This document shows, one piece after another, positions 6,606-60,405 of a stretch of 64,000 nt of DNA. The translations under genes were made by a program, and so were the position numbers. The notes beneath the pieces are model-generated. The model saw only the letters and a list, made by a program, of their open reading frames with translations, was not told the origin of the DNA and did no database searches. This DNA is from a virus. The stretch lies in IMG/VR virus record IMGVR_UViG_3300020180_000017, positions 1 to 64,000 of that record; one strand, given 5' to 3'. Positions within the stretch are counted from its first letter, which is position 1, and every line of letters begins with the position of its first letter.

Positions 6606-7204
6606 TAACAAATTGTTTTAGGTACTTCTGTATAAAATTCTTTATAATTCTCTTCTTGTTCATATAATGCTTCATCTCCATTATAATAATCAATATCTCT
6701 TTTAATATTTTTTTGCTTGTCAAACTCTATCTCTACTAATTCTGATAAATTATTAATTATGATTTTATCTACGTCACTACTTTTATAGTTTGTAGATCTA
6801 ACTGCATTAGGCCATAATTTATTTACTACTTTAACTATTTTAGCTGCTGCTTGTTTATTATAAAACATATTTACATCTACGTATCTATATATGTCTTGTA
6901 ATATTTTTTCTTTTATTTCTATCTTATCTGTATTAAGTGGAGTTAGTTTAACTGCGTTTAACACATTAATTTCTAAAATACCCATCCTATCAAATAGTAT
7001 TTGACCTTCTCTATTATTAATATACTCCATAAAAGCATATTGTTGCATTGCTTTTTCTGCGTAGAAATACAATTTGTTATTTCTATCTTCAAATATGTTT
7101 TGTTTTATTACTTCATTTAGTATTTCTCTATGTTTATTTTCCATAGCCAGAATACTTGCTTCATCTTTTAAAGCTTCTCTTATATAATCTATTTTACAAT
7201 TCAT
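6605..7204 (-). CDS. Small hypothetical protein (~199 aa) between the giant cargo genes, with Cys only at both ends
   Basis: Track ORF 6605..7210; likelier ATG at 7204 (ATGA overlap with RNAP stop) gives MNCKID...PKTIC. Translationally coupled on both sides. Confidence 0.75.
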   Translation of the reverse strand: MNCKIDYIREALKDEASILAMENKHREILNEVIKQNIFEDRNNKLYFYAEKAMQQYAFMEYINNREGQILFDRMGILEINVLNAVKLTPLNTDKIEIKEKILQDIYRYVDVNMFYNKQAAAKIVKVVNKLWPNAVRSTNYKSSDVDKIIINNLSELVEIEFDKQKNIKRDIDYYNGDEALYEQEENYKEFYTEVPKTIC

Positions 7205-23400: not shown

Positions 23401-23766
23401 ATACATTTGTTCATTCTCTTGGATTGTTTTTGTTAAGTCATAACCATATTTATCATTAAGGTATTTTTTTTCTTCAAAATTATCAAAGTAAGAATTAAAA
23501 TCTTTTTTTACAAATAATGTAGGATCAAATAAGTCTTGTTCTTGTTTTGGATTATACTCTCGTAAAGTAAGCTTGGCCATTTCTCTAGTTGTCAATGGCT
23601 CTGCATTTTTATTGCGGGCATATTCTCCTTCATCAAATGTTCCAAAATCAAAAGGTTTATACTGTTTTAATATTGCTACATCAGTTGCATTCTTAAAGAA
23701 AGAATTAGCTGCATTATCTTTATCTATGTCTGATTTAAATATGTCCCATTCATTTATATCTGGCAT
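17464..23766 (-). CDS. Giant ejected/cargo protein (2100 aa) with an N-terminal Gly/Ala-rich hydrophobic region (possible channel former) and coiled coils
   Basis: Lies immediately upstream of the virion RNAP; hydrophobic segments FAFMLSAMIPVAGIF and ILLGGIMGGGMAVA; single Cys at the penultimate residue. Confidence 0.75.
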   Translation of the reverse strand: MPDINEWDIFKSDIDKDNAANSFFKNATDVAILKQYKPFDFGTFDEGEYARNKNAEPLTTREMAKLTLREYNPKQEQDLFDPTLFVKKDFNSYFDNFEEKKYLNDKYGYDLTKTIQENEQMYYDDWMKQNVLTRGLKTIGTMATNIVAKAGLKFVEGLGYVGSALNPLNIFGEDYFLKVADNGFSNYFNKVQEGMKDDPMFRTYKSSEYDSMGAFEKMTTSEFWGSEAADGFAFMLSAMIPVAGIFSKIGKGLSFAKRAQVVGELGTVAEEASAAMNIASGGRVLTGRLGNASNALFGSKEIAAPIQWAYSVASESFFETKGVVDALNKRRKDFTDPLFNLSQEEFEEYKNNKASNTFLANAALLSLTNMFQTKLLFKALGKQAAPSIRGAVNNAQQVVAKKELSKLLNNRVVQGVKLAIKGTVIEGYLEENPQLAIERINSSNDKEYLHYNPDSSALWQYFQQIAGQTEKASTLFGGSGDTELATSILLGGIMGGGMAVAQANLQKRKLDKEGNKINSNWYSLSGVGYGEIKNKKDADVFGIAKLQNKYNTWQDANKTAELKTEWDQLKKAPGDNKDRLDAIALEYTAMMKATQSKITKLNEQNILADSLDNVSPAFADVLREQTFKDYFISGNNAGFGQGILSSLESVKNTPISQVREFGLDPESLNEKIYDRYVSISKKVLSNEDYNLDKFQSKSGLITYESLNILAENRKNEALHHVINEDIFNNAVKKHKDEIFTARFKSENSEINVLQDTLLKFVEAYGDIHQAKQNIDSKTITEDGKKREEDRLVKAQNKLDALINDPLNEFINTTILKNPLSSYEDVTKFIYGDLNKIFFESKLASLKSDPNISSEQNEKNIKAQAVLIQNELSDLAHSLSQQIRNIYSVTSLTNAAINAKYLANLLKNMNAEEYLEYLKEKIRIAKTTTPEITTEIESEVKSEIEQLKELLKQKEEELIALNKDEILKKQEELNIERGSIDDIEKERIIDIEKQQNDIKETLKKIDLLESEIAEIKAKILAKEEIIIDKDPIYFIREIKDEDGVVTEYEIANVKTNQGVSGEIYSNKDLAEAALKKLEKKDIPVKIAPLVYKKDKEVWLLDKVGDNYIYYPEGTTQEDIDSLTPAPLKTIIPEVSNETAEAIENHFSPTKPVVGVFQEVVFNGKSYRKYADGRIFEMQDEVEYKADLTVDSLRKLDALFNGVVIEDEVEVEIKDSATPYLTPNKSVISLVEVVNKVDVTKKVIIPEIGEIDAMPIIASKYDIKMNALMLMPGFGSFISENSFQLVIQKGDFSEESQRKNRFTDKVNAGIDAGVVQEGHVIALVDSDGKYVKIKVDEKITQDDTGDVVMFNIDKNIFLSHLSKSAGIYKDKIDPAMSEEEIILNVYGIVDNKVKQLEEAIELIDRDKTGATKIPIYFMESSRGKQPYGNQYILVNSVIAKPKLTFITKKTYDNKVNFNGEFFSVGSFIVQIHGKEHIKVIPATIGDNENEVVKNSVKNIFDLDYSKLSDAQKELVLKFISKYLFIKSLPPLPKSKKLLFEPTKNKNSPYVIKVSNGKLTLFKVSGTEEISFDPMDLTLSLPFVDLDKNTKLKILNDKFEEVEINATEYLLNNLKTNYKPLIDKDNNLRSLPLTPYFTFSYSKENPITDVQTTSEVGSLNDELTNAENRYEEMQSRHKNEIEEYNKKNNTDFLNRDEILYGRNEYSDFERTKEILEIANRQKAEEEKSRGEVLSVIDKFSTVNAPQLTNEEKSKRKEIFEKLKTIWNRISSKDSNNRADLDEGFAVDFTAASEAGGVNIPAHGMGKSSLASALKDLFELMNNGINPKRGHGGLDVAPLTAPEVSAQTTGGGHAYRDGAFILLGTDGMITNINDIRGILVNDGLLNSNPEIIDLLRQSFPNLEIQSYSNAAKAVESLLDKQPQPQKEVDAPIPVSDLEIEIAKIEKRRQEELIISLGIIQMDKIKGWYSSHLVNTQLVGDKNKEEALKKVLLSIIKRVENKEKLGQQSKIFDSEIQAYENIKLINARYNAALAVLKSEPQKVSNSLLNEIHELTSKSSIDIGLIEFGIQSLEGAYGPVKSVKKVSDYNRIVKEINELNDLIQCK

Positions 23767-32801: not shown

Positions 32802-35800
32802 TTATCTAATTGAATTGGTTATTTTTGAATTTAAAAATTTAAATATAAATTGTGTTCTACCTGAAACTTCTTTTGCCAACCATATTTCGTGGTAAGAATG
32901 TCTGAATTTTGATATTTTAGAGGAATCCATATTAATTGTATATAAAGATCTTGTGTATCCGTTATCGTCATTTTTGAGTATGTAAGCATCCATATTAGAA
33001 AATTCTCCTCTATCTTTTACTATATTGTTAAAACCATTAAACCTATATCTGTTTTCTTTTTTTATGCATAAAACATCTGTCGTAAAGTTATTTACTACTT
33101 TAGGGTAATTATATAAGTCAATGTCTCTCACTTCTGTTTTTGTTATGAGATTTAACATTCCAGAATTTTGTTCTGAATTTGATACTATGGCTCTGTCAAA
33201 GTTTTCTTTTAAGACGTGATATTTATCCAAACAATTATTTATGTAGTGATAAGCTTCTAATTGATATTCAAATGAATTTAATATGTTTATTTCTTGACCG
33301 TAAGAAATAATTGGAGAAACTTCCCAAGGATAATCTTTTCCGTAGAAATTACAGTAAGACCCACAATTATCATTATGTTTCCATAATGCATTATTTTTAA
33401 TTGTAAGAAAGTGATCTTCCAATTGAACTACTCCATCTGGATGCCAATCATGAAAGGAAATAAATCCTTCATTTTGTGCTCTATAACTTAATGTCCAAGA
33501 AGCACTTTTAAAATAAAGTGGGTTATTTAGTGATATTGGGTTACCTTGATATTCAAATTGTTTTTTAATGGAGTTATATATAATACTTTCTAATAAAGGA
33601 ACGTAGTCTTTTTTACAGAGATATATCGTTTCGTAAAAATTATCATATACCATACTATATCCTACACCACATGCTATATTATCTTCTTCTGCATAATTTG
33701 GAAAGACTTTCTTTAACTTTAAAGGCATAAACTCTTTACTCCAAAAATGTATACCTTGTTTAGTCACATCATCCAAAGATTTTTCTGAAAATCTAAACAA
33801 TCTTCCTTGTGATGCAGAAGGGTAGTAGTACCCAGATGGAGTTGATAAAAAAGCATATTTTGATTGTGTACTTCCATAAGCTACATCAGTATGCATTATT
33901 TCTCTTGGTTGTCTTGCAAATAATCCTCCATCCCCTATTGTAATTGTGTCATTATTCAATTGCAATTCACTTCTACCCACTGATAAATACGGAGAAGCTT
34001 TATCAAACAAAAATATTAATCTGTCCATATCAACAGAGTGAACACCAATAAGATTTCCAAATTGTAGATTATCAAAAGAGTAATAATTATTATTTAAAAA
34101 AGATTTCCAATTATTTACTCTTTGATTTTTAAAAGCAGGTAATGAATAAATTACTGCATTTTTATCTCTGAATAAATCATCTATTTTCAATTGTTGTTGA
34201 GAAAATATTTGATTAGTTTCCAATTTAAAAAAAGAAGGGCTCAACTTAAACTCTTCTGCAAATTCTAGTCTGTCACTTCTAAATATGGATGATAAATTTG
34301 AATTTTCTGAAGAGTAATGCGGATGTGTAGTTTCTTCTCTAAACCAAAGATTAGCATCTGCTTCAACTATGTGATTTACTACTCCATTAATTGAAGTGTA
34401 CATGTATTCATCTGTTACAGTAAACAGATTTTTATTATTTTTTTTGCAATCTAAATTATGGTTTTGTGCTGGTAACTTTCCTTGACTTGGAGCCTTGCTA
34501 ACTATATTTGTTAATTCATAGGGTTCATTATTATAGTAGAATCGAGGGTAACCAAGGTTACGATAATTTTTATAGTTAAAAATAAAGTCATCTGCATTAT
34601 TATAATTAGAAATACTCTGTGAAAATACTTGCCTTCTAGTTTGAAAAGATGTTTGTACAATAACACAGTCTCCTCCTGCTATTACTGGAGACTCGTAAAA
34701 TCCACTTCCACTTACAACTATTGGGCAAGAATGAGTTTTAACGTATTGTCCACTATCAAGTGTCCCATATTGATTTCTATTTGAAATTTTTGAAATGGCG
34801 TAGTACATTGCTGCTGAACCAGATGTTGTATTTGTAATGTCATTGCACACTCCAAATTCTGTTGCAGTTCTATTGCTATTATCTTCAAATGTAATTTCTG
34901 GAACTTCTTTATTTAACTCTACGTATATAGTTTTATTTCCTTTAAAGTTATTAAATATTGTGCCATTATTAAGTTCTACATTATTATCTGGAATGTATAG
35001 ATAATCCTTTACGTATCTTCTTTTATTAATGCATTTACTTTGATTAAATGTAGCTACACTATTATGTTGATAAGCATAGCTACGGGGCTTTACTAATTTT
35101 TGAATTATATCTAGCCATATTTGAGCATGTTGAGAAGCAAGTAAAGTAAAACCCAACGTTTTAGCAGTTGTTTGAAGTATTCCCATTAACACTCTATTAG
35201 GTTTTAAAGCTAACAGATCTTCTGTATTACTTGTGGATTTATTCCATAGAGTATCACATGTTTCAAATAATGTAGTTTTAGCTACTACAGTTGTAGTTGT
35301 TGTAGCAGGAGGTGTTGTTGTTACTGTTGTAGTGACTTCAGGATTCTTTTTTTGAGTTGTTTTACATACTTTACCATTTAATTCTAAATAGGCTTGTATT
35401 AGTCCTAAGAATGAAGCTAAATACAAAGAAAAGTTAGTTATCAATGTAGCTTTTGGATGTCTGTATACTTCTTCAAAACTACCTTTAACTTCAGCTTTTT
35501 CTTCTGTTAATATTTTTAATTCTTCTCCTAAACCTGTTTTTAATCCGTAATTAGCATCTGCTGTATAAAAACTAAATCTATCTTTATAAACTTTTGATAA
35601 AGGATTAAAACCTTGCTCTTTATTATTCTTACTATTTACAATGGTGGAAGAATGAAAACTATCTGGTGATTGATCGTTAAACGGATAATTTTGGTAGAGT
35701 ATTTCTCTTTTTTGATCCAACATACTTCTTATGTTAGATAAATATCCTGTGGCCAATACAGATTTATTTCCTGCTTCTCTACTTTGCCTTAATATTTCAT

Positions 35801-37355
35801 AACCAACAATATCTTTTCTATATGCCCCATCTTTATTTTTAGGGTGCTCAATTTTTTTAAATTGCCACAACTTTAAATTGATGTGTATCACTCCATCTAC
35901 ATTAGTATATCTTTCTGCTATACATTCATCAGGAAATTTAGGATAACGAATTGGAGTACAAGCGTCATCTCCAAATAGTAACTTATCACTAGGATAAAGT
36001 TCTGTACTTTCAAAGTACGCCATTTCTCCTTTTCCTATTATTTTGCCGTCACAAAGAAGGGTTTCTTTTCTTATTAAATTACCCGCAGTGTTTTTTACTT
36101 GCCATTGTTGAATTTTTTCTGGAGCATCACAAATATTCAGATTTTTATCCAATTCAAAAACTTCGTCACCACTTGCATTACTACTATCTTTTCCTGTTTT
36201 TTTTCTTCCTGGTATATGATACCTATTTGATTTTTCTCCTTTATTTGTTATCCATCTAATTGCAGGAGAGTAGTTTTCATCTCCAAAGTACCCAAAATCA
36301 AAATTATTTTTATAATATTCTAAGGGTACTTGTTTTATTACATATTCCACTTCAATATTCATTGCTTGTAATTGATAGTCAAGTGGCTCTGAATATTGTA
36401 TATCTGAATAAAGTAAGTATTCGCTATTACTAGTTATATTACCTACTTTACTTGGAATTCTATTTTCTATTATAACTCTGTCCAATGTTTCCCTTATATT
36501 GGATATATCGGATATAGTTACTTTTGATTGTGAAGTCGAGTAAGGTCCGTAAGTGTAGTATGATTCGTTATTAACTGCTGAATTTTCCTGTCCATTAAAT
36601 GCTGTATTAACAATTAATAAAATTTGATATTCTTCGTAGTTTTGATCAAGATTTTTTATGGTTAAATCAATTCCACCTCTATTTTGATTAAATATTTGTA
36701 TAGGGGTTGATAGTGATTGATAGTCTCCAATTTTATCTCCACCTGCTAAATAAGATATACCCACAGAATAAGTGCCATTAGGTAAGTTTCCTCTTCCTTT
36801 TTTTATTTCCAAGCAAGGTATTGTCGTTTCTTTAAATTGAAATAATTGCTTACAATCAATTTCATTGCCAATTATTTTTTCCTTACAGTTAGTATCTTTA
36901 TTGATAGTATATTTATAAGGTATATTAGATAGGTTTATTTCTCCTATATCAATATCTTCATTTCCAAACACAACATACTCTTCTACATTATTTAATATTC
37001 TGCTTCTACCTATAATTGGTTTACAAGTGAACTTATATTCTGGGCAATCAACTTTAAACAATTTTTCATAGGTACAGTTTACTATATTTAATATGCCAAA
37101 CTCTCCATTTTGCTGTATTATTAATAATCTATTATCCCTTAACTGTATTTGAGATAAAGGAGTAGACTCAAATTGATAGCATAACTTATTACTTTGTTCA
37201 TTGGATAACGTAAATAATTGCCCATCCATACCATGCACCATTGTGTTTCTGGCATGTTTCCATGTATCACTCCCATTAAAGTTAGAGTGAACATCTTTTA
37301 CTAGTTTTTTAGTAAAGGTGCTTGTTTTTATATTTGAAATTTCTTTTTCTGCCAT
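32802..37355 (-). CDS. Tail stabilization/muzzle-like protein (~1517 aa)
   Basis: Size and position (after ring proteins, before cargo genes); motifs HARN..LSNE, IGDGGLF, WTLSY..FISFHDWHP. Start moved to ATG 37355 (TAATG overlap). Confidence 0.75.
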   Translation of the reverse strand: MAEKEISNIKTSTFTKKLVKDVHSNFNGSDTWKHARNTMVHGMDGQLFTLSNEQSNKLCYQFESTPLSQIQLRDNRLLIIQQNGEFGILNIVNCTYEKLFKVDCPEYKFTCKPIIGRSRILNNVEEYVVFGNEDIDIGEINLSNIPYKYTINKDTNCKEKIIGNEIDCKQLFQFKETTIPCLEIKKGRGNLPNGTYSVGISYLAGGDKIGDYQSLSTPIQIFNQNRGGIDLTIKNLDQNYEEYQILLIVNTAFNGQENSAVNNESYYTYGPYSTSQSKVTISDISNIRETLDRVIIENRIPSKVGNITSNSEYLLYSDIQYSEPLDYQLQAMNIEVEYVIKQVPLEYYKNNFDFGYFGDENYSPAIRWITNKGEKSNRYHIPGRKKTGKDSSNASGDEVFELDKNLNICDAPEKIQQWQVKNTAGNLIRKETLLCDGKIIGKGEMAYFESTELYPSDKLLFGDDACTPIRYPKFPDECIAERYTNVDGVIHINLKLWQFKKIEHPKNKDGAYRKDIVGYEILRQSREAGNKSVLATGYLSNIRSMLDQKREILYQNYPFNDQSPDSFHSSTIVNSKNNKEQGFNPLSKVYKDRFSFYTADANYGLKTGLGEELKILTEEKAEVKGSFEEVYRHPKATLITNFSLYLASFLGLIQAYLELNGKVCKTTQKKNPEVTTTVTTTPPATTTTTVVAKTTLFETCDTLWNKSTSNTEDLLALKPNRVLMGILQTTAKTLGFTLLASQHAQIWLDIIQKLVKPRSYAYQHNSVATFNQSKCINKRRYVKDYLYIPDNNVELNNGTIFNNFKGNKTIYVELNKEVPEITFEDNSNRTATEFGVCNDITNTTSGSAAMYYAISKISNRNQYGTLDSGQYVKTHSCPIVVSGSGFYESPVIAGGDCVIVQTSFQTRRQVFSQSISNYNNADDFIFNYKNYRNLGYPRFYYNNEPYELTNIVSKAPSQGKLPAQNHNLDCKKNNKNLFTVTDEYMYTSINGVVNHIVEADANLWFREETTHPHYSSENSNLSSIFRSDRLEFAEEFKLSPSFFKLETNQIFSQQQLKIDDLFRDKNAVIYSLPAFKNQRVNNWKSFLNNNYYSFDNLQFGNLIGVHSVDMDRLIFLFDKASPYLSVGRSELQLNNDTITIGDGGLFARQPREIMHTDVAYGSTQSKYAFLSTPSGYYYPSASQGRLFRFSEKSLDDVTKQGIHFWSKEFMPLKLKKVFPNYAEEDNIACGVGYSMVYDNFYETIYLCKKDYVPLLESIIYNSIKKQFEYQGNPISLNNPLYFKSASWTLSYRAQNEGFISFHDWHPDGVVQLEDHFLTIKNNALWKHNDNCGSYCNFYGKDYPWEVSPIISYGQEINILNSFEYQLEAYHYINNCLDKYHVLKENFDRAIVSNSEQNSGMLNLITKTEVRDIDLYNYPKVVNNFTTDVLCIKKENRYRFNGFNNIVKDRGEFSNMDAYILKNDDNGYTRSLYTINMDSSKISKFRHSYHEIWLAKEVSGRTQFIFKFLNSKITNSIR

Positions 37356-38164
37356 TAGTAAAATGGAATAAACCATTTATTGTAAAATGCTGCTTGCTCT
37401 TCTTTATATCTTTTATTTAATTGCCTAATTGATTCACTTTTTATATAATTATCAAAATCTACATAAGTAAGATTCATTTGTTTTTCTGCATATTGTAATT
37501 TTCTTTCTACGTCATCCTCTGAATTCATAAATATATCCTGTAGTATTTTAACTTTTACACTCCATTCGTAAAAAAAATATAATTGAGGTTGCTTCGGTAT
37601 TAGCCCTATGGCATCCATATCTATATAATAAGTTATGATTGCTTTTCCTGTAGTTACTCCAAATTCTATTAAACTTTCGTCTCTATTAATTTTGTAAGTG
37701 TGTTTATTGCATTGATCTATTGATGGAGTAAGAGTAGAGTGTTCAGTAAATACTAAAAATTGTTCTTTGCTTTGTTTATAAGGTATTGTCCAATAGCAAA
37801 CTCCGCAATCATTTATACAACCAAGTGGTGTATAAACAGGTTCACCTTCTTTTGGTTTTTCACATACTTGCTCTGTCCAATTTTGATAAAAAGGTAATGA
37901 AGAAGGTACTTTGAAATTGGATATAATATCTATAGACTTTACTTTTTTTAAATTGTCAGGTAAAGTTGCTACGCCATTTTCTATTTCTAAAATACTACAC
38001 TCAATCGGATTTATTCTTATACCTGCTATACTATTTGTATAACTTATTATTTTATAGAGTCCAGAGACATCAATAATCCCACCTTCAAAATATTTTTTAA
38101 AGTCTCCTTTAATAGAATCAAGAAGTTGTTTTAATGTAATATATTCTGTATTAACTAAATTCAT
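37355..38164 (-). CDS. Tail ring/tubular protein (269 aa)
   Basis: LEIENGVATLPDNL..YY..D..GLIP pattern; immediately precedes the muzzle gene. Confidence 0.65.
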   Translation of the reverse strand: MNLVNTEYITLKQLLDSIKGDFKKYFEGGIIDVSGLYKIISYTNSIAGIRINPIECSILEIENGVATLPDNLKKVKSIDIISNFKVPSSLPFYQNWTEQVCEKPKEGEPVYTPLGCINDCGVCYWTIPYKQSKEQFLVFTEHSTLTPSIDQCNKHTYKINRDESLIEFGVTTGKAIITYYIDMDAIGLIPKQPQLYFFYEWSVKVKILQDIFMNSEDDVERKLQYAEKQMNLTYVDFDNYIKSESIRQLNKRYKEEQAAFYNKWFIPFY

Positions 38165-38799
38165 TTGTTTTCATTTTTATCTATCTTTTCTTGGTTTACT
38201 ATTTGTATTGAAATAGACATTTCTTTTATTGCAAATTCAATTGCTTGAGCTTGTAACTTTTCAGAAATCATCCACTCTTTATCCAAATATCTTTTACATT
38301 TATTGCAATCAATTACTTCTTCTTTGAATACAGCTAATATGTTTATTTGTTTGGGAAGATCTCCATAAATATAACCTCCTTGATAAAAATAAAACTTTTC
38401 TGTTTTTGGAATCCAAGGACTTTCTTTTTTGGAAGGGTAAGAAGATATTGTAGAAGAATTTAATTCTGTACTATTATCTATTGAACTTACACTTTTAATC
38501 ATTACACCAAGACTATCTTCAAATAAATCTGGTATTTTTTCTTTTGTCCTTTTAATTACGCACTTAGTAGTTATTCCACAACAAGGGTCTACTTTTGGTA
38601 CATCAATTACAGTAGCACATTTATAGGATTGATTAATTTTACTTCTACGCCCTAACTTAAATGTTTCAGACTCTCTTTCCATTAACCAATTAGCATGTTT
38701 GTTTAATATCGTATCAATTTGTTTATTGGTTACTCTATTATCAGCGTTAATCTTTTTTAAGATTGTTTTAACATTACTTATTGCTTCTCTTTTTGTCAT
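38161..38799 (-). CDS. Tail ring protein (212 aa)
   Basis: Cys-containing VPKVDPCC..KRTKEKIP..YFYQGGYIY..AVF pattern; synteny. Confidence 0.65.
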   Translation of the reverse strand: MTKREAISNVKTILKKINADNRVTNKQIDTILNKHANWLMERESETFKLGRRSKINQSYKCATVIDVPKVDPCCGITTKCVIKRTKEKIPDLFEDSLGVMIKSVSSIDNSTELNSSTISSYPSKKESPWIPKTEKFYFYQGGYIYGDLPKQINILAVFKEEVIDCNKCKRYLDKEWMISEKLQAQAIEFAIKEMSISIQIVNQEKIDKNENK

Positions 38800-39395: not shown

Positions 39396-40685
39396 TTATT
39401 TAAATCTTATTACTTGTCTCATTGGTTCAGGCATTTCCAACCAAAATAATTCTATTACTACTCCTGCTTTACTTGAACCAAAATTTACTGTTTGCCAATC
39501 TGACCCATCTGCTATACTTGGTATGCTAACATACCTAAATGATTTAGCTTCTGTCTCTGCATATTTATGTTGATCTGCCTTAATGAAACTTACATTTACT
39601 TTTTTAGGATTTATTCCTTGTTCTAATATATAATCAGTTAAATAACTTTCTGTTTTTGAATCTATAACAACTGGTAATGGACTTTTTTGATGTTTTTCAT
39701 CTTTACCATGTATTGCAAAAAGAATATGTTCAGTAGCTAAATTTATTTCTGTAATTAAATCTGTAGAGTTATTCATTTCTACAAAAGGGAATTTTTGAGA
39801 TACATACAATTTAAGCCATTCATTTGCCATATATGAAAATCCAAGACCTGTGTGGTTACTATTGTTAACTTCTACGATTTTATATTTATTGGCTATATTA
39901 GAACTGAATATATCGTCATAGAATATCTTACGAGAGGATACGTAATCATCAAATTGCTCTTTATTAGAAGAGGATTTTACTATGTGTCCCCCTCTTGTTG
40001 TTTGTTCATTCCACCCATTCATTTGATCTCCAAGAGAAACAATGACTAATTCATTAATTCCCTTAAATTGACTTATAATGCTTTCTGAAACAGTTTTTAA
40101 TCTACCTTGATAAGTGTGTTTTGTGTATTTACCATTTTCAAGAAGCATACCAATGTGATCATCTGAAATATAAATAACCATAGATGTTTTTGCTACATTT
40201 TTAGAACTACCTTGTTCAAATGGTTTTATAGTATTAGGGAACAGCTCTTTTAGTTTTTCTTTGAGTTCTCCTTCATTATAGAAATCCTGAACATTATATC
40301 TGAGATCTACGCTATAATCCCACTCTGTTCCATTTTTAGCACTTTTATTCCATACTCTTGCTACTTTAGTATTTATACCATCAGCCCCTACTAATTCACT
40401 TATTTCAGTGGGTGTGAGTGGTCTATTAGACTTAATCTTTATGTTATTTTCTGTTTTTGAAGTGATGTGTGGTTCTTGATAAGTCTCTGTAATTTTATCG
40501 TCATAAAAAGTTACATCTTCTATTGCAGCCAAAGCTGAATTTAGTTTACTGGCTTTATACTTACTCTCTTTAATATCTTCAATAGGAACTCCAAACCTTT
40601 TTGATAGTTTAGGATTGGATATGTAATTAGTATCCATCAATTTAGGATTATCTATAAATGCCTGTGTTACTTTGTCAATTATCAT
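39396..40685 (-). CDS. Calcineurin-like metallophosphoesterase (429 aa) with an N-terminal HTH-like region
   Basis: Motifs ISDDHIG, SLGD, SNH, IHG, ADQH. Confidence 0.8.
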   Translation of the reverse strand: MIIDKVTQAFIDNPKLMDTNYISNPKLSKRFGVPIEDIKESKYKASKLNSALAAIEDVTFYDDKITETYQEPHITSKTENNIKIKSNRPLTPTEISELVGADGINTKVARVWNKSAKNGTEWDYSVDLRYNVQDFYNEGELKEKLKELFPNTIKPFEQGSSKNVAKTSMVIYISDDHIGMLLENGKYTKHTYQGRLKTVSESIISQFKGINELVIVSLGDQMNGWNEQTTRGGHIVKSSSNKEQFDDYVSSRKIFYDDIFSSNIANKYKIVEVNNSNHTGLGFSYMANEWLKLYVSQKFPFVEMNNSTDLITEINLATEHILFAIHGKDEKHQKSPLPVVIDSKTESYLTDYILEQGINPKKVNVSFIKADQHKYAETEAKSFRYVSIPSIADGSDWQTVNFGSSKAGVVIELFWLEMPEPMRQVIRFK

Positions 40686-40704
40686 TTTATTTATTTAAGA
40701 TTAG

Positions 40705-40775
40705 TAGAGCTATTAGGATTCGAACCTAAACTAATCGCTTAGAAGGCGATTTTGCATCCATTACAACATAGCTCT
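40705..40775 (-). tRNA. trnR: tRNA-Arg (anticodon UCU), CCA not encoded
   Basis: Acceptor stem AGAGCTA/TAGCTCT; anticodon arm ATCGC-CTTCTAA-GCGAT; T arm TTAGG-TTCGAAT-CCTAA. Confidence 0.93.
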
Positions 40776-40777
40776 AT

Positions 40778-40801
40778 AAAAAAAAGGGGTATTACCCCCT
40801 T
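40778..40801 (-). terminator. Intrinsic terminator-like hairpin immediately 5' of tRNA-Arg
   Basis: AGGGG-GTAATA-CCCCT followed by a T run on the minus strand. Confidence 0.65.
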
Positions 40802-40814
40802 AATAATTCTTTTA

Positions 40815-40982
40815 TTACATAGCCAAACCGTTACGATATTGATTACTCATTATTTTAAATAATGCTGTTTTTTTAAATTTATTTATTGTACTTTCTTTTA
40901 TACCTATTCTCATTGAGATTCTTGCACTACTGCATTTAATGTAGGAAGGGTTTTCTTGCAAAAATTTTACTGTTGTTTTCAT
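40815..40982 (-). CDS. Small basic hypothetical protein (55 aa), possibly HTH-like
   Basis: Hand-translated MKTTVKFLQENPSYIKCSSARISMRIGIKESTINKFKK...; A-rich leader; below the track cutoff. Confidence 0.6.
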   Translation of the reverse strand: MKTTVKFLQENPSYIKCSSARISMRIGIKESTINKFKKTALFKIMSNQYRNGLAM

Positions 40983-40986
40983 TTTT

Positions 40987-41307
40987 TTAATTTAAAAGGT
41001 TATTGATATTTTCTGTTGCTTGCTTTAACTTATTTAAAGTTATTTGAAATTTAATTAATTGATTATCTAACTTATTTATAACTGTGGAGGGTGAAGATTC
41101 AATTACTGGATTGTCTTTTTCTTTTTCTCCAGGAAACTCACTTAAACAGTTTTGAATAATTATGGTTGTACCAAGTACATCGTTTAATTGATCTACTTGA
41201 TTTTCTAACACTCTACATATCTCAACAAACGCTGGAGATTGTTTATAAGGAACTTCACCTAAAGTGCATGAAGGATCGTTTTGGAGATAGCAATTATCTA
41301 TTTTCAT
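40987..41307 (-). CDS. Hypothetical coiled-coil protein (106 aa)
   Basis: ORF track; A-rich leader; operon context. Confidence 0.6.
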   Translation of the reverse strand: MKIDNCYLQNDPSCTLGEVPYKQSPAFVEICRVLENQVDQLNDVLGTTIIIQNCLSEFPGEKEKDNPVIESSPSTVINKLDNQLIKFQITLNKLKQATENINNLLN

Positions 41308-41316
41308 AATTTTGTT

Positions 41317-41592
41317 TTAAAATGTTTTTGTTTTTACCTTAATGAAGTTTGGTACTTTTTGTTTTAAATTTGTTATTGGGTTTACTTCTATTATAAAACC
41401 ATCTTGGAACTGGTCATGTCCTTTTAAATGTGCTTTGAGGTGCTTTTGCTCTCTCCTTTGTTCTTTTTTGGAGTCAAAGTCTTTTATCTTACCTCCAAAA
41501 GATCTTGTTTCAGAGGGTTTTCGATTTTTGTTTTGGTGAGTATTCATATTCTTATTTTGTTTACACAAATGTACAACTAATTTATTTAACAT
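41317..41592 (-). CDS. Small basic hypothetical protein (alternative start at 41547)
   Basis: ORF track; directly downstream of the LeuRS-like gene. Confidence 0.6.
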   Translation of the reverse strand: MLNKLVVHLCKQNKNMNTHQNKNRKPSETRSFGGKIKDFDSKKEQRREQKHLKAHLKGHDQFQDGFIIEVNPITNLKQKVPNFIKVKTKTF

Positions 41593-41599
41593 CGCCTAA

Positions 41600-42829
41600 T
41601 TAAAAACAAACATTAAAAAAAGTTAGGAGTTCTTCTTTTTGTAAATTAGAAATATTAATATTTTTGTTCTTATTTAGAAATATCATCCATTCAGATACTA
41701 CTTTATTTACTTTCCAACTTTCAAAGTAATTTACAATAGTATTTTTAAATTGCTCTAAGTCAAGTTCTACTGCTTCTAACTCATTATACTCTAACCATTT
41801 AAATATTCTATTTTTAAATCTTTCACATCCTTTATACCCGTCATCTTTCCATTTTCCACCTTCAAAATAATGATTAATAAACATCAAATACATTCTTAAT
41901 GTTTGAGGATCGTAATCTATGGGGTTTACTGTATTATTAAGTGACTTACTCATTTTATTACCATCCTCTCCTAATATCATCCCTTGATGTATTACTTTAA
42001 GGAATGGTTCATCAAAATCTATGTAACCTATATCAAATAAAAATTTAGTTATAAACCTAGCATATATGAGATGCATACAAGCATGTTCATTTCCTCCAAC
42101 ATACAAGTCAACAGGTCTGTTTTTATCATATTCAATAGTATAAAAAGAACTATCAACAAATGTATCTAAAGTATCTTCTTCTCCATTTACAGGTATTGAA
42201 CACCCCCATTTTCTTTGCCTACTTACACACCAATCAGTTAAGTTATGTAGCCAATGTATTTGTTGTTTTTTAGTTTTTTCTGGGTAATCTACTTTGTCAA
42301 GGTCATTAATCAATCTTTCTTTGTAATCTGTAATTTTAAAAAACCACTGATTTAATTCTTTTTTAATTACTTCAGTATTGCATCTTTCACATTTTTTATC
42401 TTTTACTTGTTCTTTAGCTAAAACAGTTTCACATGAAATGCAATAATCTTGTTCTCTATTAGCCTTATAAGCTAATCCATGATCTAATAGTTTATTGAAT
42501 AACCACTGAGTTCTTTCTTGATATTCTTTAGAATGTGTTGAAAGTTTATATTCAAAAGAAGTATTCATTCTTTCCATTTCTTTTGAAAAAGCCACTATAT
42601 TTTCTTCAGTTATTTCTTTTGGATCTCTATTTACTTTTTTAGCGTAATTTTCTGTTGGAAGACCAAAAGCGTCAAAACCAAAAGGTTGAAATATTTCATA
42701 GCCTAAATACTTTTGTATTTTACAATAACTATCTACAATAGAATAATTATAGTAATGTCCTACGTGAAGATTTGCTCCACTTGGGTAAGGAAACATTACA
42801 GTTACATACTTATTTTCTTTTTTTATCAT
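41600..42829 (-). CDS. leuS: Minimal leucyl-tRNA synthetase-like protein (409 aa; catalytic core only)
   Basis: MFPYPSGANLHVGH (HIGH), GFDAFGLP, CxxC..CxxC knuckle, QWFFKIT, DWCVSRQRKWG, DTLDTFVDSSFY, PVDLYVGGNEHACMHLIYARF, EPF, GNKMSKS. Confidence 0.92.
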   Translation of the reverse strand: MIKKENKYVTVMFPYPSGANLHVGHYYNYSIVDSYCKIQKYLGYEIFQPFGFDAFGLPTENYAKKVNRDPKEITEENIVAFSKEMERMNTSFEYKLSTHSKEYQERTQWLFNKLLDHGLAYKANREQDYCISCETVLAKEQVKDKKCERCNTEVIKKELNQWFFKITDYKERLINDLDKVDYPEKTKKQQIHWLHNLTDWCVSRQRKWGCSIPVNGEEDTLDTFVDSSFYTIEYDKNRPVDLYVGGNEHACMHLIYARFITKFLFDIGYIDFDEPFLKVIHQGMILGEDGNKMSKSLNNTVNPIDYDPQTLRMYLMFINHYFEGGKWKDDGYKGCERFKNRIFKWLEYNELEAVELDLEQFKNTIVNYFESWKVNKVVSEWMIFLNKNKNINISNLQKEELLTFFNVCF

Positions 42830-42859
42830 AATTTATTTTGTTGTTTACATAACTCCGTT

Positions 42860-43147
42860 TATCCCTGCAAGTGTTTTCACTTTGGGTTAAAGATTATTAG
42901 AGTAATAACATAATCTTTAAGTTAACCTATAAACTCCCACACCCCTGTTTCGACTTTATTAATTCTTGGGAATTAAGTCTGTGTTTTATGTGGAGGAATA
43001 CGCTTTTTCCCAAGAATTACTTGCAGGGCATTGTTGTGACGGTAACACAGAGCAACTATTTTACGTATCCTATACCAGTAAGGCCAAGTTTCCACTCCTT
43101 ACTGAGTTTATAATAACTATCTTTTATTGACTCTAGGACTAAAAGAT
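42860..43147 (-). ncRNA. Candidate multi-stem structured RNA upstream of the LeuRS-like gene
   Basis: Nested inverted repeats ccctgcaagt/acttgcaggg, aattcttggga/tcccaagaatt, ttaaagatta/taatctttaa; hairpins cagtaagg/ccttactg and atctttta/taaaagat; GC-richer than the flanks, no good ORF. Confidence 0.6.
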
Positions 43148-43162
43148 GGAAAAAACCCGAAT

Positions 43163-43193
43163 AAAAAAAACCCCTTGTATTTCTACAAAGGGC
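43163..43193 (-). terminator. Intrinsic terminator/attenuator within the leader region
   Basis: GCCCTTTGTA-GAAA-TACAAGGGG followed by T8. Confidence 0.75.
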
Positions 43194-43311
43194 TAATTTA
43201 GACAGGAGATTGAGAATACAGTTGTTACACTGTAAAGATATGAAATTTATTTTAATTACTAATTATATTTTTGCACTAACTCCTGTCTAAGAAGCATTTT
43301 GCTTTACATAA

Positions 43312-43343
43312 CAAATGTATACTTTTAATTAATATCCACCAAA
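43312..43343 (-). promoter_or_regulatory. Bacteroidota housekeeping-sigma promoter
   Basis: TTTG (43343-43340), 20-nt spacer, TACATTTG (43319-43312); matches TTTG-N19-21-TAnnTTTG. Confidence 0.65.
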
Positions 43344-43455
43344 TTTATTTGTATTATTTTACTACTTAATAATTCCTCCTAAAGTTGTAGTAATCCATAA
43401 AGGAAGGTGAGTTGAGCTTAATGTTATAGTGTATTTCATACTGCAAATATACAAC

Positions 43456-43487
43456 AAAAGAGGGGCCAGTATAGAAATACTACCCCT
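43456..43487 (-). terminator. Terminator-like hairpin after the tail gene block
   Basis: GGGGTAGTAT-TTCT-ATACTGGCCCC followed by TCTTTTGTT. Confidence 0.55.
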
Positions 43488-43509
43488 GAAAAACAAAACA
43501 AAACAAATT

Positions 43510-44673
43510 TTAAGGATAATTTATGTAAAAACTCTTAATATCCGACTTAGGTACGCCAACACAAGGATAAGATTCTACCCTAATAGTATGATAACCTTTA
43601 TTTAAATTTAATAGAGAGACACTTGCAGCCACTTGAGGTTGTGCAGGTGACGTAATCAAGATATTATCTAAATACACTCTAAATGTAGTTTCTACACTTG
43701 TCCACGAAGTTGTTGCAACGTCATTAACTATTACTGGTGTATTAACTACTATAGAAGAGCATCCAGAAGTTACTGAAAGAGACGTAGTTGTAGAGCCAAA
43801 AGTTACAGAAGCTACTGACCCACCATTGTTACAATAAGCTTGTATTTTAAGCCAGTAAGGTGTTGATGGGGATAATTCTGAGAATGTAGCAAAAGGTACA
43901 ACAAGGTTAGCTTGAGTTGATCCTGGAACTAGTACAGTTAATCCTGCATCAGTGTAGAGAGAAACAGTCCAAGTAGTGTTATTACTACCAGAAACCCAAG
44001 TATAAAATAATGAAGTAGATGTAATACCTATTGCAGTTACACCTGTTATTTCACTGCAATTAGATAAAGAAGCTACACAATTTAATACAGATGTGCAAAA
44101 TCCAGGAAGAGCAACTAAGTAGTTTAAAGCACATTGCCAGTCTATTGTTGCTTGTATTTTTTCGTTAAAACCTGTATTTACTTTTGAAAAAGTAATGCAT
44201 TGAGTGCTTAACAATTTATCAAATAAATAGCTTGTAGTTGTATCTGTTGCAGATATTTTAACTTTTTCATCAGGTGGAGTTGATACAGCTCCAGTTGCAG
44301 TCACTTGTACTTTTTCAATTCCTGAAACTGTTATAGGACTTAATAAAATACCAGTACCAGCAGTTAACATTGTTGAAAGATACTCTGGTGTTGCATCAGA
44401 ATTGTCTCTAAGTACTTTTCCTTTATAAATGTTATAATCACATTTCCAAGATTCTAATTTTCCAACAAGATCATACAGAGTTTCATTTGTTTCAAAATCA
44501 AGACAAGTAAAAACTATATTAGTGCCATTTACACTTTTTTCTTTTAACTGTATACAGCCAAATGGAAGTTCATTGTCACATCCCATTATAGAATAGTCAG
44601 GAAGATTACAAGTGCATAGATTATCACATTGATCACATCCACATTTATTGCAAGGATTTGTATTAACACACAT
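43510..44673 (-). CDS. Cys-rich tail fibre/appendage protein with a fibronectin type III-like domain
   Basis: Cys-rich N-terminus; ITSTSLFYTW..LSPSTPYWLKIQAYC FN3 signature. Confidence 0.65.
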   Translation of the reverse strand: MCVNTNPCNKCGCDQCDNLCTCNLPDYSIMGCDNELPFGCIQLKEKSVNGTNIVFTCLDFETNETLYDLVGKLESWKCDYNIYKGKVLRDNSDATPEYLSTMLTAGTGILLSPITVSGIEKVQVTATGAVSTPPDEKVKISATDTTTSYLFDKLLSTQCITFSKVNTGFNEKIQATIDWQCALNYLVALPGFCTSVLNCVASLSNCSEITGVTAIGITSTSLFYTWVSGSNNTTWTVSLYTDAGLTVLVPGSTQANLVVPFATFSELSPSTPYWLKIQAYCNNGGSVASVTFGSTTTSLSVTSGCSSIVVNTPVIVNDVATTSWTSVETTFRVYLDNILITSPAQPQVAASVSLLNLNKGYHTIRVESYPCVGVPKSDIKSFYINYP

Positions 44674-58140: not shown

Positions 58141-60405
58141 TTAATAATTTGTAAAATTAAATTCCTCTACATTTTCATTTATATAATTATATAAATAGTT
58201 GGTTGTAGGTTTTATTACTTTGTCTGTTTTTATTTTTAATCTGTGAATACCATTTTTGATTGCATATAATTTCATTATGTAATAACCAGCAAAATCAGAT
58301 ATAATTCTATCAAAGTTTTCTATGTTATCGTCATTGTAAAATTTTAATTCTTCTAAAAACCAATAATCAGGTATTCTATCTATCCCTTTATAGGTCTTAA
58401 TAACTTTTTCATTATCTTTACCAGTATTGATAGTGATACTTCCATATTCAGCATGTAAGTATTCTTTAAATATTTTTTTAAATTCTTTAAATATTTCAGC
58501 CGCTTTACCGTTACTTCCTTTGTAAAACCCGTAGGATGAATTATCTCTACCAAACGTATTTTCTTTAAACATATCTATCTCTCTTTCTTTTGCTAAAAGG
58601 TGAGACAGCATTTTTCTAATTACGTAATTTATAAAATTTGGTTTATTTCTTTCTACTAATGTGTAAGCGTTATAAAGTTTTATTAAAAGATTGGCGTGTT
58701 CATTTGTTTCTTCTGTAGTATCAAACCTACCTCTCCAATTTGCAACCATTTTATCCCCTGTAATCTTTATTTGTTTTTCACCTTTTTCGTCTAAATACTC
58801 TTCTTCAACAGGTCTTTTCCAAATTGAAATAGAAAATACAGATTTTGATGTAGTAGTAACTCCTGTTTCTACAGGATCCACACCAGCAAAGTAAGTATAA
58901 AAAGGAGCATTTTTTTCTGGTTCTTCATATATTGTTACTAAACCCCTTTTATCTTGCATTTTTGGATCAACAGGGTAACCTATTTCTTCTGGCAGTTTAT
59001 TTAGTTGATATTTAGTCTTTCCATCACTATCAATGTATAGTAAACATTTTATTGGTTTAACATCCCAACTGTTTTCTTTATCTTTTATTTTTATAACTGC
59101 TTGTGCTCTTTCTATTGCTTGTACGTCAAACTCTGATACGTTTCTCCATGCAAAAGCCTCTTTAATATTTTTTGGATTTTGAGACTTTTTAAGTATGTAC
59201 TCTCTAGGCTCAAGAGCAATCCATGCGGGTTCGTCATCTATTCTACCATACTCTCCTGCTTTAAACCCTTCAAATTCAGCTTTGTTTAAAAGTGTTAAAG
59301 CTAACTCTATTTGAGAGTTACCATGAATATCAGTTGCCTCAGGCATACCCCATTGAGCAGGAACAAATAATCCGCAAATGTGCTCTACACCACTTTCATC
59401 GTAATATTCTGTGGGCACTCCAAAAAACCCGTAATTAAAAGGATTTTTAATAAATTTTTCCAAAGGTTTACATTCAGTAAGATCACCCACCGAACCTCCA
59501 ATACAAAAACTACCCACTCTACTAAGACCAGATGTTAATGCTGGTTCCATGTATTGCAGTGTAATATCAGCCGTGGGAGCAATTCCACCTTCTTCATACC
59601 AAGCCCAAAACGTAGGGCCACCCACACCTTTTTTAGGATCTTTATTAAGTGTGTTTGCTACTATAGTTGATTCATTTCCTTCCCACTCCCATTTATTCTT
59701 TACTCCTTTAACTTGTTGTCTCTGCCTTATCTCCCCTCCTTTATCAGGAGAAAATTCTCTATTCCAATCAGTGTGGTTATTTAAATGTGTTTTAAAATGG
59801 TTAAGGATAGACCAAGAACCATCCACGTCATCAATAAATTTATCATCTGAAGCAAACCATTTAATACGTCTTCTATTTTCAAACCAAAGATAATTTACTG
59901 ACTTAGCTACGTGAGCATAACTAAATACAAATTGTCTACGTTTAAGTATGCAAGAGTGCTTATGAAATATTTCAGCAATCTTTTCATAGAGCATCATGTG
60001 ATACTGTCCATCTCTTATAGTAACAAAAGTTTCTTTGTAGCCTTGTTCTTTATTTATGATTGGACAAAAATTAATAAAAAAATAGTAATCTCTACATGTA
60101 TACCAATAATTATTTTTATCTTTCCAAATAACCCCAAGTCTACTTTTTAATTCTTCTCCATCCCAAAACTCATTGTATTCTGGAGTGGATTCTGCATATT
60201 CTGTGTATCTATTGTTTTCTAACCAAGTTTTTGCAGGTTTATTCCACTCACATATTTTATCCTTGTGAAAATTATAATCCCCAGGTTTTTTAAAACATTC
60301 CTTAAGTAGGAAATTACCAAATTCTAATTGAGTATTAAATGATGTCTTACTCCATTGTTTAATGTCAAAGTTATAAGTGGGTATATTTTTTATAGGTACT
60401 ATCAT
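58141..60405 (-). CDS. terL: Terminase large subunit (754 aa)
   Basis: YYFFINFCPI, LKRRQ (Walker A region), WYEEGG (Walker B), GGSVGD, FAGVDP (RNase H), LVERN, NFDRI. Confidence 0.92.
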   Translation of the reverse strand: MIVPIKNIPTYNFDIKQWSKTSFNTQLEFGNFLLKECFKKPGDYNFHKDKICEWNKPAKTWLENNRYTEYAESTPEYNEFWDGEELKSRLGVIWKDKNNYWYTCRDYYFFINFCPIINKEQGYKETFVTIRDGQYHMMLYEKIAEIFHKHSCILKRRQFVFSYAHVAKSVNYLWFENRRRIKWFASDDKFIDDVDGSWSILNHFKTHLNNHTDWNREFSPDKGGEIRQRQQVKGVKNKWEWEGNESTIVANTLNKDPKKGVGGPTFWAWYEEGGIAPTADITLQYMEPALTSGLSRVGSFCIGGSVGDLTECKPLEKFIKNPFNYGFFGVPTEYYDESGVEHICGLFVPAQWGMPEATDIHGNSQIELALTLLNKAEFEGFKAGEYGRIDDEPAWIALEPREYILKKSQNPKNIKEAFAWRNVSEFDVQAIERAQAVIKIKDKENSWDVKPIKCLLYIDSDGKTKYQLNKLPEEIGYPVDPKMQDKRGLVTIYEEPEKNAPFYTYFAGVDPVETGVTTTSKSVFSISIWKRPVEEEYLDEKGEKQIKITGDKMVANWRGRFDTTEETNEHANLLIKLYNAYTLVERNKPNFINYVIRKMLSHLLAKEREIDMFKENTFGRDNSSYGFYKGSNGKAAEIFKEFKKIFKEYLHAEYGSITINTGKDNEKVIKTYKGIDRIPDYWFLEELKFYNDDNIENFDRIISDFAGYYIMKLYAIKNGIHRLKIKTDKVIKPTTNYLYNYINENVEEFNFTNY

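Follow-up and report, generated by a model that had tools for sequence, protein, structure and literature searches.

How small can a leucyl-tRNA synthetase (LeuRS) become and still do its work? The question is raised by a gene in the 64,000-nucleotide (nt) stretch of viral DNA analyzed here, which is referred to throughout as the window (positions 1 to 64,000 of IMG/VR record IMGVR_UViG_3300020180_000017). An uninterrupted coding sequence (CDS) at 41600..42829 of the minus strand, with an ATG start and a TAA stop, encodes a LeuRS-like protein of only 409 amino acids (aa). A preliminary description prepared from the sequence alone had portrayed the product as a phage-encoded LeuRS of about half the normal size, with intact catalytic motifs and streamlined rather than decayed. 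The 409-aa protein is a derivative of bacterial LeuRS, its gene is under purifying selection, and we think it reasonably probable that it is a working, extremely reduced enzyme of the bacterial type that does not edit and that charges tRNA-Leu, the tRNA of the host in the case of the window's phage.

Results

Among protein family models the best match is to TIGR00396 (NCBIfam leuS_bact, an equivalog), with E 3.6e-99 and 333.1 bits, a score that lies below the curated cut-off of that model and to which we return in the Discussion. The second-best family is ValRS at 135 bits, with the Val, Ile and Met models all far behind TIGR00396, and the Pfam family is tRNA-synt_1 (E 4.9e-38). Comparison by hidden Markov model with LeuRS, one of the checks proposed in the preliminary description, therefore returned the expected family.

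All of the motifs that had been claimed as intact could be located. They are MFPYPSG (residues 12-18), the HIGH signature in the form H22-V-G-H25 (42755..42766; like every feature of the window located below, on the minus strand), DAFG (53-56), a zinc knuckle of the ZN1 type formed by C130, C133, C147 and C150 (CISC...CERC, residues 130-150, 42380..42442), DTFVDSSFY (222-230), EHACMH (248-253), and K292-M-S-K-S296, which follows the linker G287-E-D-G290 at the leucine-specific domain site and N291 (41942..41971 for linker, N291 and motif together). In 61 aligned compact proteins, whose identity to the window protein is 57-76%, the invariant positions include PYPS, H22, G24 and H25, D53, all four cysteines of the knuckle, DW..SRQR, F224, S227 and Y230, E248, H249 and H253, K292, M293, S294 and K295 of KMSKS, and K373, N375 and S379; the last Ser of KMSKS and G290 of GEDG are each kept in at least 90% of these relatives and the second residue of HIGH, V23, is variable. 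The columns of PYPSG, the D of GxDxFG, SxxY and EH...H, which from the T. thermophilus LeuRS structures we take to be the leucine/adenylate pocket, are at least 90% identical in 73 full-length LeuRS sequences and 94-100% identical in 109 compact proteins, and three of the four knuckle Cys columns (C130, C147 and C150) are at least 90% conserved in the same 73 full-length enzymes.

Read-through or an alternative genetic code was considered as well and ruled out: the gene ends in TAA, the next open reading frame (ORF) lies in a different frame, so that read-through of the LeuRS stop is of no concern, and under translation table 11 the window has ORFs as long as 3405 aa.

What has been removed was established relative to P0124, the closest full-length representative (827 aa, 54% identity to the window protein). 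Seven blocks amounting to about 410 residues have no counterpart in the window protein: P0124 residues 1-25, 223-421 (CP1), 441-492, 513-527, 651-667, 707-715 and 733-827, the last comprising the C-terminal domain together with the final part of the helical bundle. At the CP1 insertion junction, W193-L-H-N-L-T-D-W200 (42230..42253), the 199 residues 223-421 of P0124 are absent and positions 222-409 of the TIGR00396 model are unmatched; the CP1 editing domain, with its threonine-rich and GTG...D..D motifs, is missing from the 409-aa protein in the alignments to both. The replacement of CP1 by a few residues, as originally described, is thus correct for the window protein, but it does not extend to the clade as a whole, where sisters of 514-533 aa carry a miniature CP1. 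The insert that follows WGxPIP has been cut to V214-N-G216 (42182..42190), again as described, with the 52 residues 441-492 of P0124 absent; a 508-aa relative, L005, retains CPKC...CPVC at this site.

At the C-terminal end the chain stops, as had been noticed, within the helical bundle. Residues 329 to the protein end at 409 (41603..41845) are predicted to form a truncated anticodon-binding bundle of four helices, in which the invariant K373, N375 and S379 are found. A complete bundle and the C-terminal tRNA-elbow domain are not present, and the TIGR00396 match stops at position 744 of 843. GEDG (287-290) stands where E. coli LeuRS has its leucine-specific domain, and so the reported absence of that domain holds. 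It is not, however, a special trait, being common to many bacterial LeuRS; because full-length P0124 and, as reported in PMC3643597, B. subtilis LeuRS also do without the domain, its loss is not peculiar to the phage protein.

The extent to which the remaining portion has kept the character of a LeuRS can be gauged from a column alignment of the 109 compact proteins, 8 proteins of middle length and the 73 full-length LeuRS. There are 141 columns that are at least 90% identical in the full-length enzymes, 31 of which fall within deleted modules. In 83 of the remaining 110 the LeuRS residue is retained in at least 80% of the compact proteins, 10 retain it partly and 17 are replaced. The window protein itself has a residue at 109 of the 141 conserved columns and the LeuRS residue at 86.

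The protein is predicted to fold like the CP1-less LeuRS from Mycoplasma mobile. An AlphaFold2 model computed from the 61-protein alignment has a mean predicted local distance difference test score (pLDDT) of 90.7 and a predicted template modeling score (pTM) of 0.88, and its C-terminal helices (329-347, 358-370, 374-388 and 395-408) correspond to the start of the anticodon-binding bundle. The top Foldseek match in the PDB is 3ziu, the M. mobile enzyme, with a template modeling (TM) score of 0.91-0.93 normalized to the query; the other matches among the 50 listed are 45 LeuRS chains (TM 0.80-0.87) and 3 MetRS chains. A sequence search of the PDB also places 3ziu first (3.4e-71), followed by 16 other LeuRS entries, those of E. 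coli, T. thermophilus, Agrobacterium and Neisseria among them. Structure prediction, which had been suggested as a check, thus gives a confident LeuRS-like fold.

The compact form is far from unique. A word-indexed protein search returned 3589 proteins of 224-716 aa at E <=1e-10, and among the best 120 of these 109 are 390-450 aa long, 8 are 514-533 aa and 3 are fragments, on contigs that reach 633 kb; some of the compact homologs had already been labelled 'leucyl-tRNA synthetase' by JGI. In deposited phages tblastn finds a form of 422 aa with 58.8% identity in LR745206 (634,780 bp) and one of 508 aa in LR756501/LR756503 (735,411 bp), with the other phage records containing ordinary-length LeuRS or other class I synthetases, and IMG/VR provides 17 viral loci on contigs of 35-508 kb.

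The gene is under purifying selection. Ratios of nonsynonymous to synonymous rates (omega, or dN/dS) were calculated by the Nei-Gojobori method for 19 CDS (the window and 18 loci, L005 being excluded as too distant and L022 as broken) and range from 0.06 to 0.24 over all pairs with finite dS, many pairs being saturated (dS infinite) and uninformative; the window gene gives 0.235 against L006, 0.236 against L007 and 0.106 against L019. A family of the same length, low omega values, the 83 of 110 columns kept and the confident fold bear out the earlier proposal of streamlining rather than decay. Two findings had been named beforehand as counting against that proposal, a lack of similarly compact homologs and neutral evolution, and neither was seen.

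A quick IQ-TREE phylogeny was computed with 85 rows (the window protein, 14 proteins from the loci, 20 compact ones, 7 of middle length, 11 short representatives and the first 32 of the 73 full-length LeuRS, omitting the duplicates L008, L011, L020 and L021 and the broken L022). One clade of 41 rows (32 compact, 8 with a miniature CP1, and L017) is obtained with a Shimodaira-Hasegawa-like approximate likelihood ratio (SH-aLRT) support of 100 and a branch of 0.55. None of the 39 non-phage rows (32 full-length, the other 7 short with 541-700 aa) falls within this phage clade, in a tree where no row is labelled M. mobile and the backbone forks are not resolved. L005 (508 aa) and P0216 (419 aa) constitute a second reduced LeuRS lineage that branches separately (support 97).

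Several relatives have features of their own. The L005 gene (3986-5512; LR756501, a 735-kb phage) lacks CP1 and the C-terminal domain and retains the CxxC...CxxC insert; five tRNA-Leu genes lie directly upstream of it, and a 256-aa ORF between these tRNA genes resembles, by eye, a GIY-YIG homing endonuclease. The miniature CP1 of the 514-533-aa sisters (L019 5998-7560, 520 aa; P0029, P0042, P0062, P0066, P0073, P0081, P0082 and P0089) comprises about 113-125 residues and in 6 of the 8 mid-length proteins, those extracted, reads TTKP(E/Q)T and GVP(N/R)DDxRD, resembling the LeuRS editing motifs. Because such forms occur at three places within the window's own subclade of the tree, CP1 has been lost repeatedly or has moved between alleles. 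L017 (6001-7464) has a charged C-terminal extension of 65 residues that is absent from the other compact homologs, and in L022 (5947-6789 and 6693-7268) the homolog is split into overlapping ORFs of 280 and 191 aa, with a frameshift that is either a sequencing error or the mark of a broken copy.

Outside the viral records, a pattern scan of prokaryotes (one genome from each of 185,579 species), which is sensitive to close relatives only, kept 80 loci of which a single one is compact. It is L084, a 424-aa form (60% identity) from a metagenome-assembled genome (MAG), and the 16.5-kb contig that carries it, which also bears a tRNA array, looks like phage DNA. Single-piece tblastn matches crossing the CP1 insertion point were also noted in L095 (a Woesearchaeota MAG), L132 (a Patescibacteria MAG), L104 and L160, and these sequences suggest that CP1-less LeuRS genes occur in some archaea and bacteria with small genomes, or else in phage contigs that were binned together with these.

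In the relatives the gene often lies next to genes for the tRNA that it would be expected to serve. Flanks of up to 6 kb (4 kb for L005 and 3 kb for L084) contain tRNA-Leu genes at 9 of 16 related loci. ARAGORN finds 93 tRNAs in 15 of these loci, including 30 tRNA-Leu that are distributed over 8 of them, and in the ninth locus with tRNA-Leu, L084, 6 of 10 tRNAs are tRNA-Leu. In L010 and L017 one tRNA-Leu gene ends 16-22 nt ahead of the LeuRS start codon. Three phage contigs, two rated 100% complete and one 43%, were scanned in their entirety, and 13 of their 14 tRNA-Leu genes are no more than 6 kb from the compact LeuRS gene: 5 of 6 in G005 (368.5 kb), as compared with 11 of 62 for all tRNAs (one-sided Fisher p 3.9e-4), 4 of 4 in G003 (482 kb; 8 of 55, p 2.1e-4) and 4 of 4 in G006 (152 kb; 8 of 43, p 5.7e-4). 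No tRNA-Leu was found near the gene in five further loci, nor in the window. Ten related phage records (five of 452-635 kb, four of these at least 97% complete) contain no LeuRS match above the curated cut-off, and so the compact gene is the only LeuRS there; the weaker matches to the LeuRS model in these records are other class I synthetase genes of 463-749 aa.

The tRNAs themselves deserve comment. Bacterial tRNA-Leu has a long variable arm. About a third of the 'tRNA-Leu' beside the reduced LeuRS genes are 73-78 nt long, with a short variable loop and an A before the terminal C; the sites are L005 3012-3085 and 3090-3164, L010 3955-4029, 4138-4212 and 4586-4660, L012 4797-4870, L015 5779-5853 and 7891-7965, L018 4084-4161, and G005 284848-284920. 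ARAGORN also reports from one to three tRNAs with a CTA anticodon (labelled Pyl) per contig in G003, G005 and G006 and one with a TTA anticodon at L084 2525-2605, all of them candidate stop-codon suppressor tRNAs. About 1 kb downstream of the compact LeuRS gene of G006 a 102-aa frame (G006:C1:86091-86384, plus strand) weakly resembles positions 630-745 of the LeuRS model (E 6.7e-5, 16.9 bits) and may be the remnant of a second copy or a chance match.

The source record is a linear IMG/VR fragment of 72,551 b with a CheckV completeness estimate of 52%, and the description of the gene as phage-encoded is confirmed by its neighbors. The terminase large subunit (58141..60405; phrog_6681, 1.1e-43) is 22-24% identical to terminases of crAss-like phages of Bacteroides, Flavobacterium and Cellulophaga, and 38161..38799 encodes a crAss-type tail ring protein 2 (PF25702, 2e-15, 57.5 bits versus a cut-off of 27). 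Giant ORFs at 3-6611 (at least 2203 aa), 7201-17418 (3405 aa), 17464-23766 (2100 aa) and 32802-37376 (1524 aa) are as in crAss-like phages. On the basis of the terminase relatives, the ring protein and the giant ORFs we assign the window to a distant crAss-like phage, the host of which is probably a member of the Bacteroidota. PHROG matches to ten large ORFs name only the terminase, an exonuclease-like protein and a structural domain, with none obtained for four other large ORFs of the window (635-894 aa), and a Pfam search of nine neighboring ORFs gives nothing above cut-off except the ring protein.

The G+C content of the window is 25-37% (2-kb bins), and in 15 long ORFs (14,548 codons) Leu accounts for 8.1% of codons, with TTA making up 56% of these. 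The only tRNA in the window is tRNA-Arg(TCT) (40704..40775; tRNA scan and Rfam). The full record adds tRNA-Ile(TAT) outside the window (G000:C1:69286-69375), which at 90 nt is unusually long and may hold an intron or an extra arm, and the two tRNAs fit the codons AGA and ATA, which account for 77% of Arg and 54% of Ile codons, respectively. The closest large relative, G009, has 173 kb, 24% G+C and a single tRNA (Lys).

LeuRS is the first gene in a run of four ORFs that ends at a terminator-like hairpin (40783..40801), one of 6 such sites in the region where 0.7 are expected from shuffles. The next ORF, of 91 aa and rich in lysine and arginine (41317..41592), begins 8 nt past the LeuRS stop. 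None of the three ORFs downstream of LeuRS has a Pfam family above cut-off or a homolog beside the relatives, no homolog of the 91-aa ORF occurs in 15 related loci, and no conserved partner gene emerges, since apart from LeuRS no ORF family is present in more than 3 of the 16 loci compared. Upstream of the gene is a 680-bp gap without a long ORF (42830-43509) that includes a strong terminator-like hairpin at 43169-43194. A search for a leader RNA or T-box with Rfam at gathering thresholds gave only the tRNA, with 40600-43600 otherwise showing two chance-level matches (E 0.35 and 0.75), and a sigma-70 promoter scan, using a model unsuited to Bacteroidota promoters, was at the level of shuffles (18 versus 16.5).

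Discussion

How might such an enzyme work? With a Rossmann-fold active site bearing HIGH, KMSKS and all of the residues for activation, a leucine pocket, ZN1, the stem-contact fold and four bundle helices as its retained parts, the compact enzyme would make Leu-AMP and pass the leucine to tRNA-Leu without post-transfer editing. Its hold on the tRNA would come from the catalytic domain and ZN1, from the stem-contact fold and from the four helices that are left of the bundle. A huge phage would supply its own tRNA-Leu as the substrate. In the crAss-like phage of the window the substrate would be host tRNA-Leu, and the benefit a raised or secured supply of Leu-tRNA for a genome that is poor in G+C and relies on TTA. 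Several roles had been entertained in the preliminary description. The tRNA-Leu context favors non-editing charging of tRNA-Leu, and nothing was found in favor of Ap4A synthesis or of the repair or charging of damaged tRNAs.

A number of observations weigh against this interpretation. The most serious is that deletion of the C-terminal domain has been reported to abolish aminoacylation by both T. thermophilus and E. coli LeuRS (PMC3561953), and the 409-aa protein lacks this domain along with about a third of the helical bundle; it is mainly for this reason that our confidence is no more than moderate. The whole-protein score of 333.1 bits falls short of the curated TIGR00396 cut-off of 548.4, a consequence of the matched model positions being only 5-221, 410-429 and 484-744 of 843. 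Seventeen columns that are near-invariant in LeuRS are replaced across the compact family. With regard to the tRNA linkage, G003, G005 and G006 were picked because tRNA-Leu was already known in their loci, and tandem tRNA copies are not the independent events that the Fisher tests assume. L004 and L009 carry ten tRNAs each without a single tRNA-Leu by ARAGORN, and there is none in the window's own record (72.5 kb) nor in G009. The adjacency to tRNA-Leu therefore comes from the other subclade, and in the subclade of the window the enzyme would have to act on the tRNA-Leu of the host.

It is in regard to the acceptor that a different outcome is easiest to imagine. The protein could activate leucine and yet not charge tRNA-Leu for translation, with Leu-AMP used in signaling or handed on to a different acceptor, be it a small molecule, a protein or a modified base, a scheme that we regard as rather improbable. 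The phage protein has kept a stem-contact fold as well as four helices of the bundle, in which there are invariant residues, whereas the truncated paralogs GluQRS/YadB and PoxA are not known to have any anticodon-binding domain; moreover, the relatives are tightly linked to tRNA-Leu genes and no conserved neighboring gene is available as a source of an acceptor or partner. These points have to be set against the existence of precedents, namely paralogs of synthetases in truncated form, GluQRS/YadB and PoxA for example, and an archaeal LeuRS-I that is described as binding tRNA-Leu and forming the adenylate while being unable to aminoacylate (PMC9437257), as well as against the loss of a C-terminal domain that E. 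coli and T. thermophilus LeuRS need (PMC3561953), the 17 replaced columns and the lack of a nearby tRNA-Leu in the window's phage. The same need for a C-terminal domain in the bacterial LeuRS that have been studied (PMC3561953) could be satisfied if the compact protein were one subunit of a split enzyme, and both the basic 91-aa ORF beginning 8 nt downstream and the 65-residue C-terminal extension of L017 can be cited in support. We consider this unlikely, as no ORF family other than LeuRS itself is found in more than 3 of 16 loci, the 91-aa ORF has neither a homolog beside the relatives nor a Pfam family above cut-off, and nothing in the window's own record or in the 10 related records matches past about position 800 of 843 of the LeuRS model, a search that a short diverged domain could escape.

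Catalysis might also have been given up altogether. A non-catalytic binder of tRNA-Leu or of a host factor, acting as a decoy or regulator (for example as a shield of tRNA-Leu against a nuclease of the host or as a sponge that titrates a LeuRS inhibitor made by the host), would be in keeping with the location of the gene beside tRNA-Leu genes and with halobacterial LeuRS2, reported to retain affinity for tRNA with little activity (PMC9437257); however, HIGH, KMSKS, the leucine pocket and the residues that bind the adenylate are invariant in 61 relatives, for which a protein that only binds would have no use, and we judge this to be very improbable. Finally, that the gene is the decaying, functionless remnant of a captured leuS is scarcely credible. 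One homolog, L022, is indeed broken into ORFs of 280 and 191 aa, but omega is 0.06-0.24 for pairs with finite dS, 109 homologs of the same length, at 57-76% identity, are present among the best 120, the deletion boundaries are the same across the clade and the fold is confidently predicted. A reduced, non-editing LeuRS that charges tRNA-Leu is thus the interpretation that we prefer.

More tentatively, and with less confidence than in the activity itself, we suggest that tRNA-Leu may be recognized without the C-terminal domain or the full bundle and that the enzyme and the adjacent phage tRNA-Leu, several of which are only 73-78 nt in length and have no long variable arm, could make up a charging pair that is sufficient in itself and to some degree insulated from the LeuRS of the host. 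Such a pair, if it exists, would sustain leucine decoding through a host shutdown, or through an attack by the host on its own tRNAs or synthetase, and would amount to a natural orthogonal LeuRS/tRNA pair of half size.

Phage-encoded synthetases are already known. A half-size phage LeuRS, its conservation and its association with clusters of tRNA-Leu genes are not described in any paper that we have found, in a survey that did not extend to the supplementary tables of PMC7162821 and 10.1101/2021.08.26.457843, and as far as we have found the half-size architecture is new to print. The smallest natural LeuRS studied, the 637-aa chain from M. mobile, still has a C-terminal domain. The compact LeuRS is smaller than this 'exceptionally small' enzyme and is without a domain held to be essential in bacterial LeuRS. 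Should our interpretation be correct, a LeuRS of 400-420 aa under selection in more than 100 phage lineages would imply that far less protein suffices for the core task and would set an example from nature beside the minimal synthetases that have been engineered. Such an enzyme would also lend concrete support to the idea that large phages run a tRNA-charging module of their own, and an editing-free enzyme would point to mistranslation that is tolerated, or even useful, during infection. For synthetic biology, the half-size LeuRS with its matched tRNAs is a candidate orthogonal pair.

Comparison with Known Systems

With the canonical bacterial LeuRS, of which structures are available from E. 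coli, T. thermophilus and N. gonorrhoeae, the phage protein shares the catalytic core, ZN1, the CP-core strands (DWxxSRQRxWGxPIP), the stem-contact fold and the first helices of the bundle, and it differs in the absence of about 410 residues in seven blocks and of an editing site. Reduction has been carried much further by design in the LeuAC urzyme, reportedly of about 130 residues and with an archaeal LeuRS as its source. By contrast with LeuAC, the phage protein occurs naturally, is three times as large, and has kept ZN1, the stem-contact fold and part of the bundle. LeuAC, an artificial LeuRS core from the Carter laboratory without CP1 and without an anticodon-binding domain, is reported to acylate RNA, with a minihelix preferred over full tRNA (PMC11229368).

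In the alpha-beta LeuRS from Aquifex aeolicus the tRNA-binding C-terminal part is described as residing on a separate chain from most of the catalytic domain (PMC3561953, PMC3643597). Unlike the case of this split enzyme, neither the neighborhood of the phage gene nor the rest of its own record nor the 10 related records yielded a gene for a second subunit. Huge phages are reported to encode up to 15 tRNA synthetases and 67 tRNAs per genome, with the synthetases proposed to charge phage tRNA variants (Al-Shayeb et al. 2020, PMC7162821). Two of the huge-phage genomes of that study carry a reduced LeuRS, LR745206 (422 aa) and LR756501 (508 aa); the window, unlike these, is a fragment of a crAss-like phage.

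The closest solved relative, both by sequence and by fold, is the M. mobile LeuRS (3ziu, 637-aa chain). Relative to this enzyme the phage protein is about 230 residues shorter, with the N-terminal 30 residues absent, a CP1 linker that is shorter by about 8-9 residues and an insert of about 60 residues after WGxPIP that is gone; it ends about 115 residues earlier (the alignment stops at 520 of 637), without the C-terminal domain or the full bundle. In both proteins CP1 has been exchanged for a short linker between the CP-core strands, W193-LHNLT-DW200 in the phage protein and a nonapeptide-containing linker in M. mobile (PMC3643597), and in both a G-x-D-G sequence precedes KMSKS, GEDG (then N291) in the phage protein and GKDG (then Q) in M. 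mobile. The M. mobile enzyme is reported to charge tRNA-Leu without CP1, without a leucine-specific domain and without editing, its short linkers being functional, and GKDG has been shown experimentally to stand in for the leucine-specific domain (PMC3643597).

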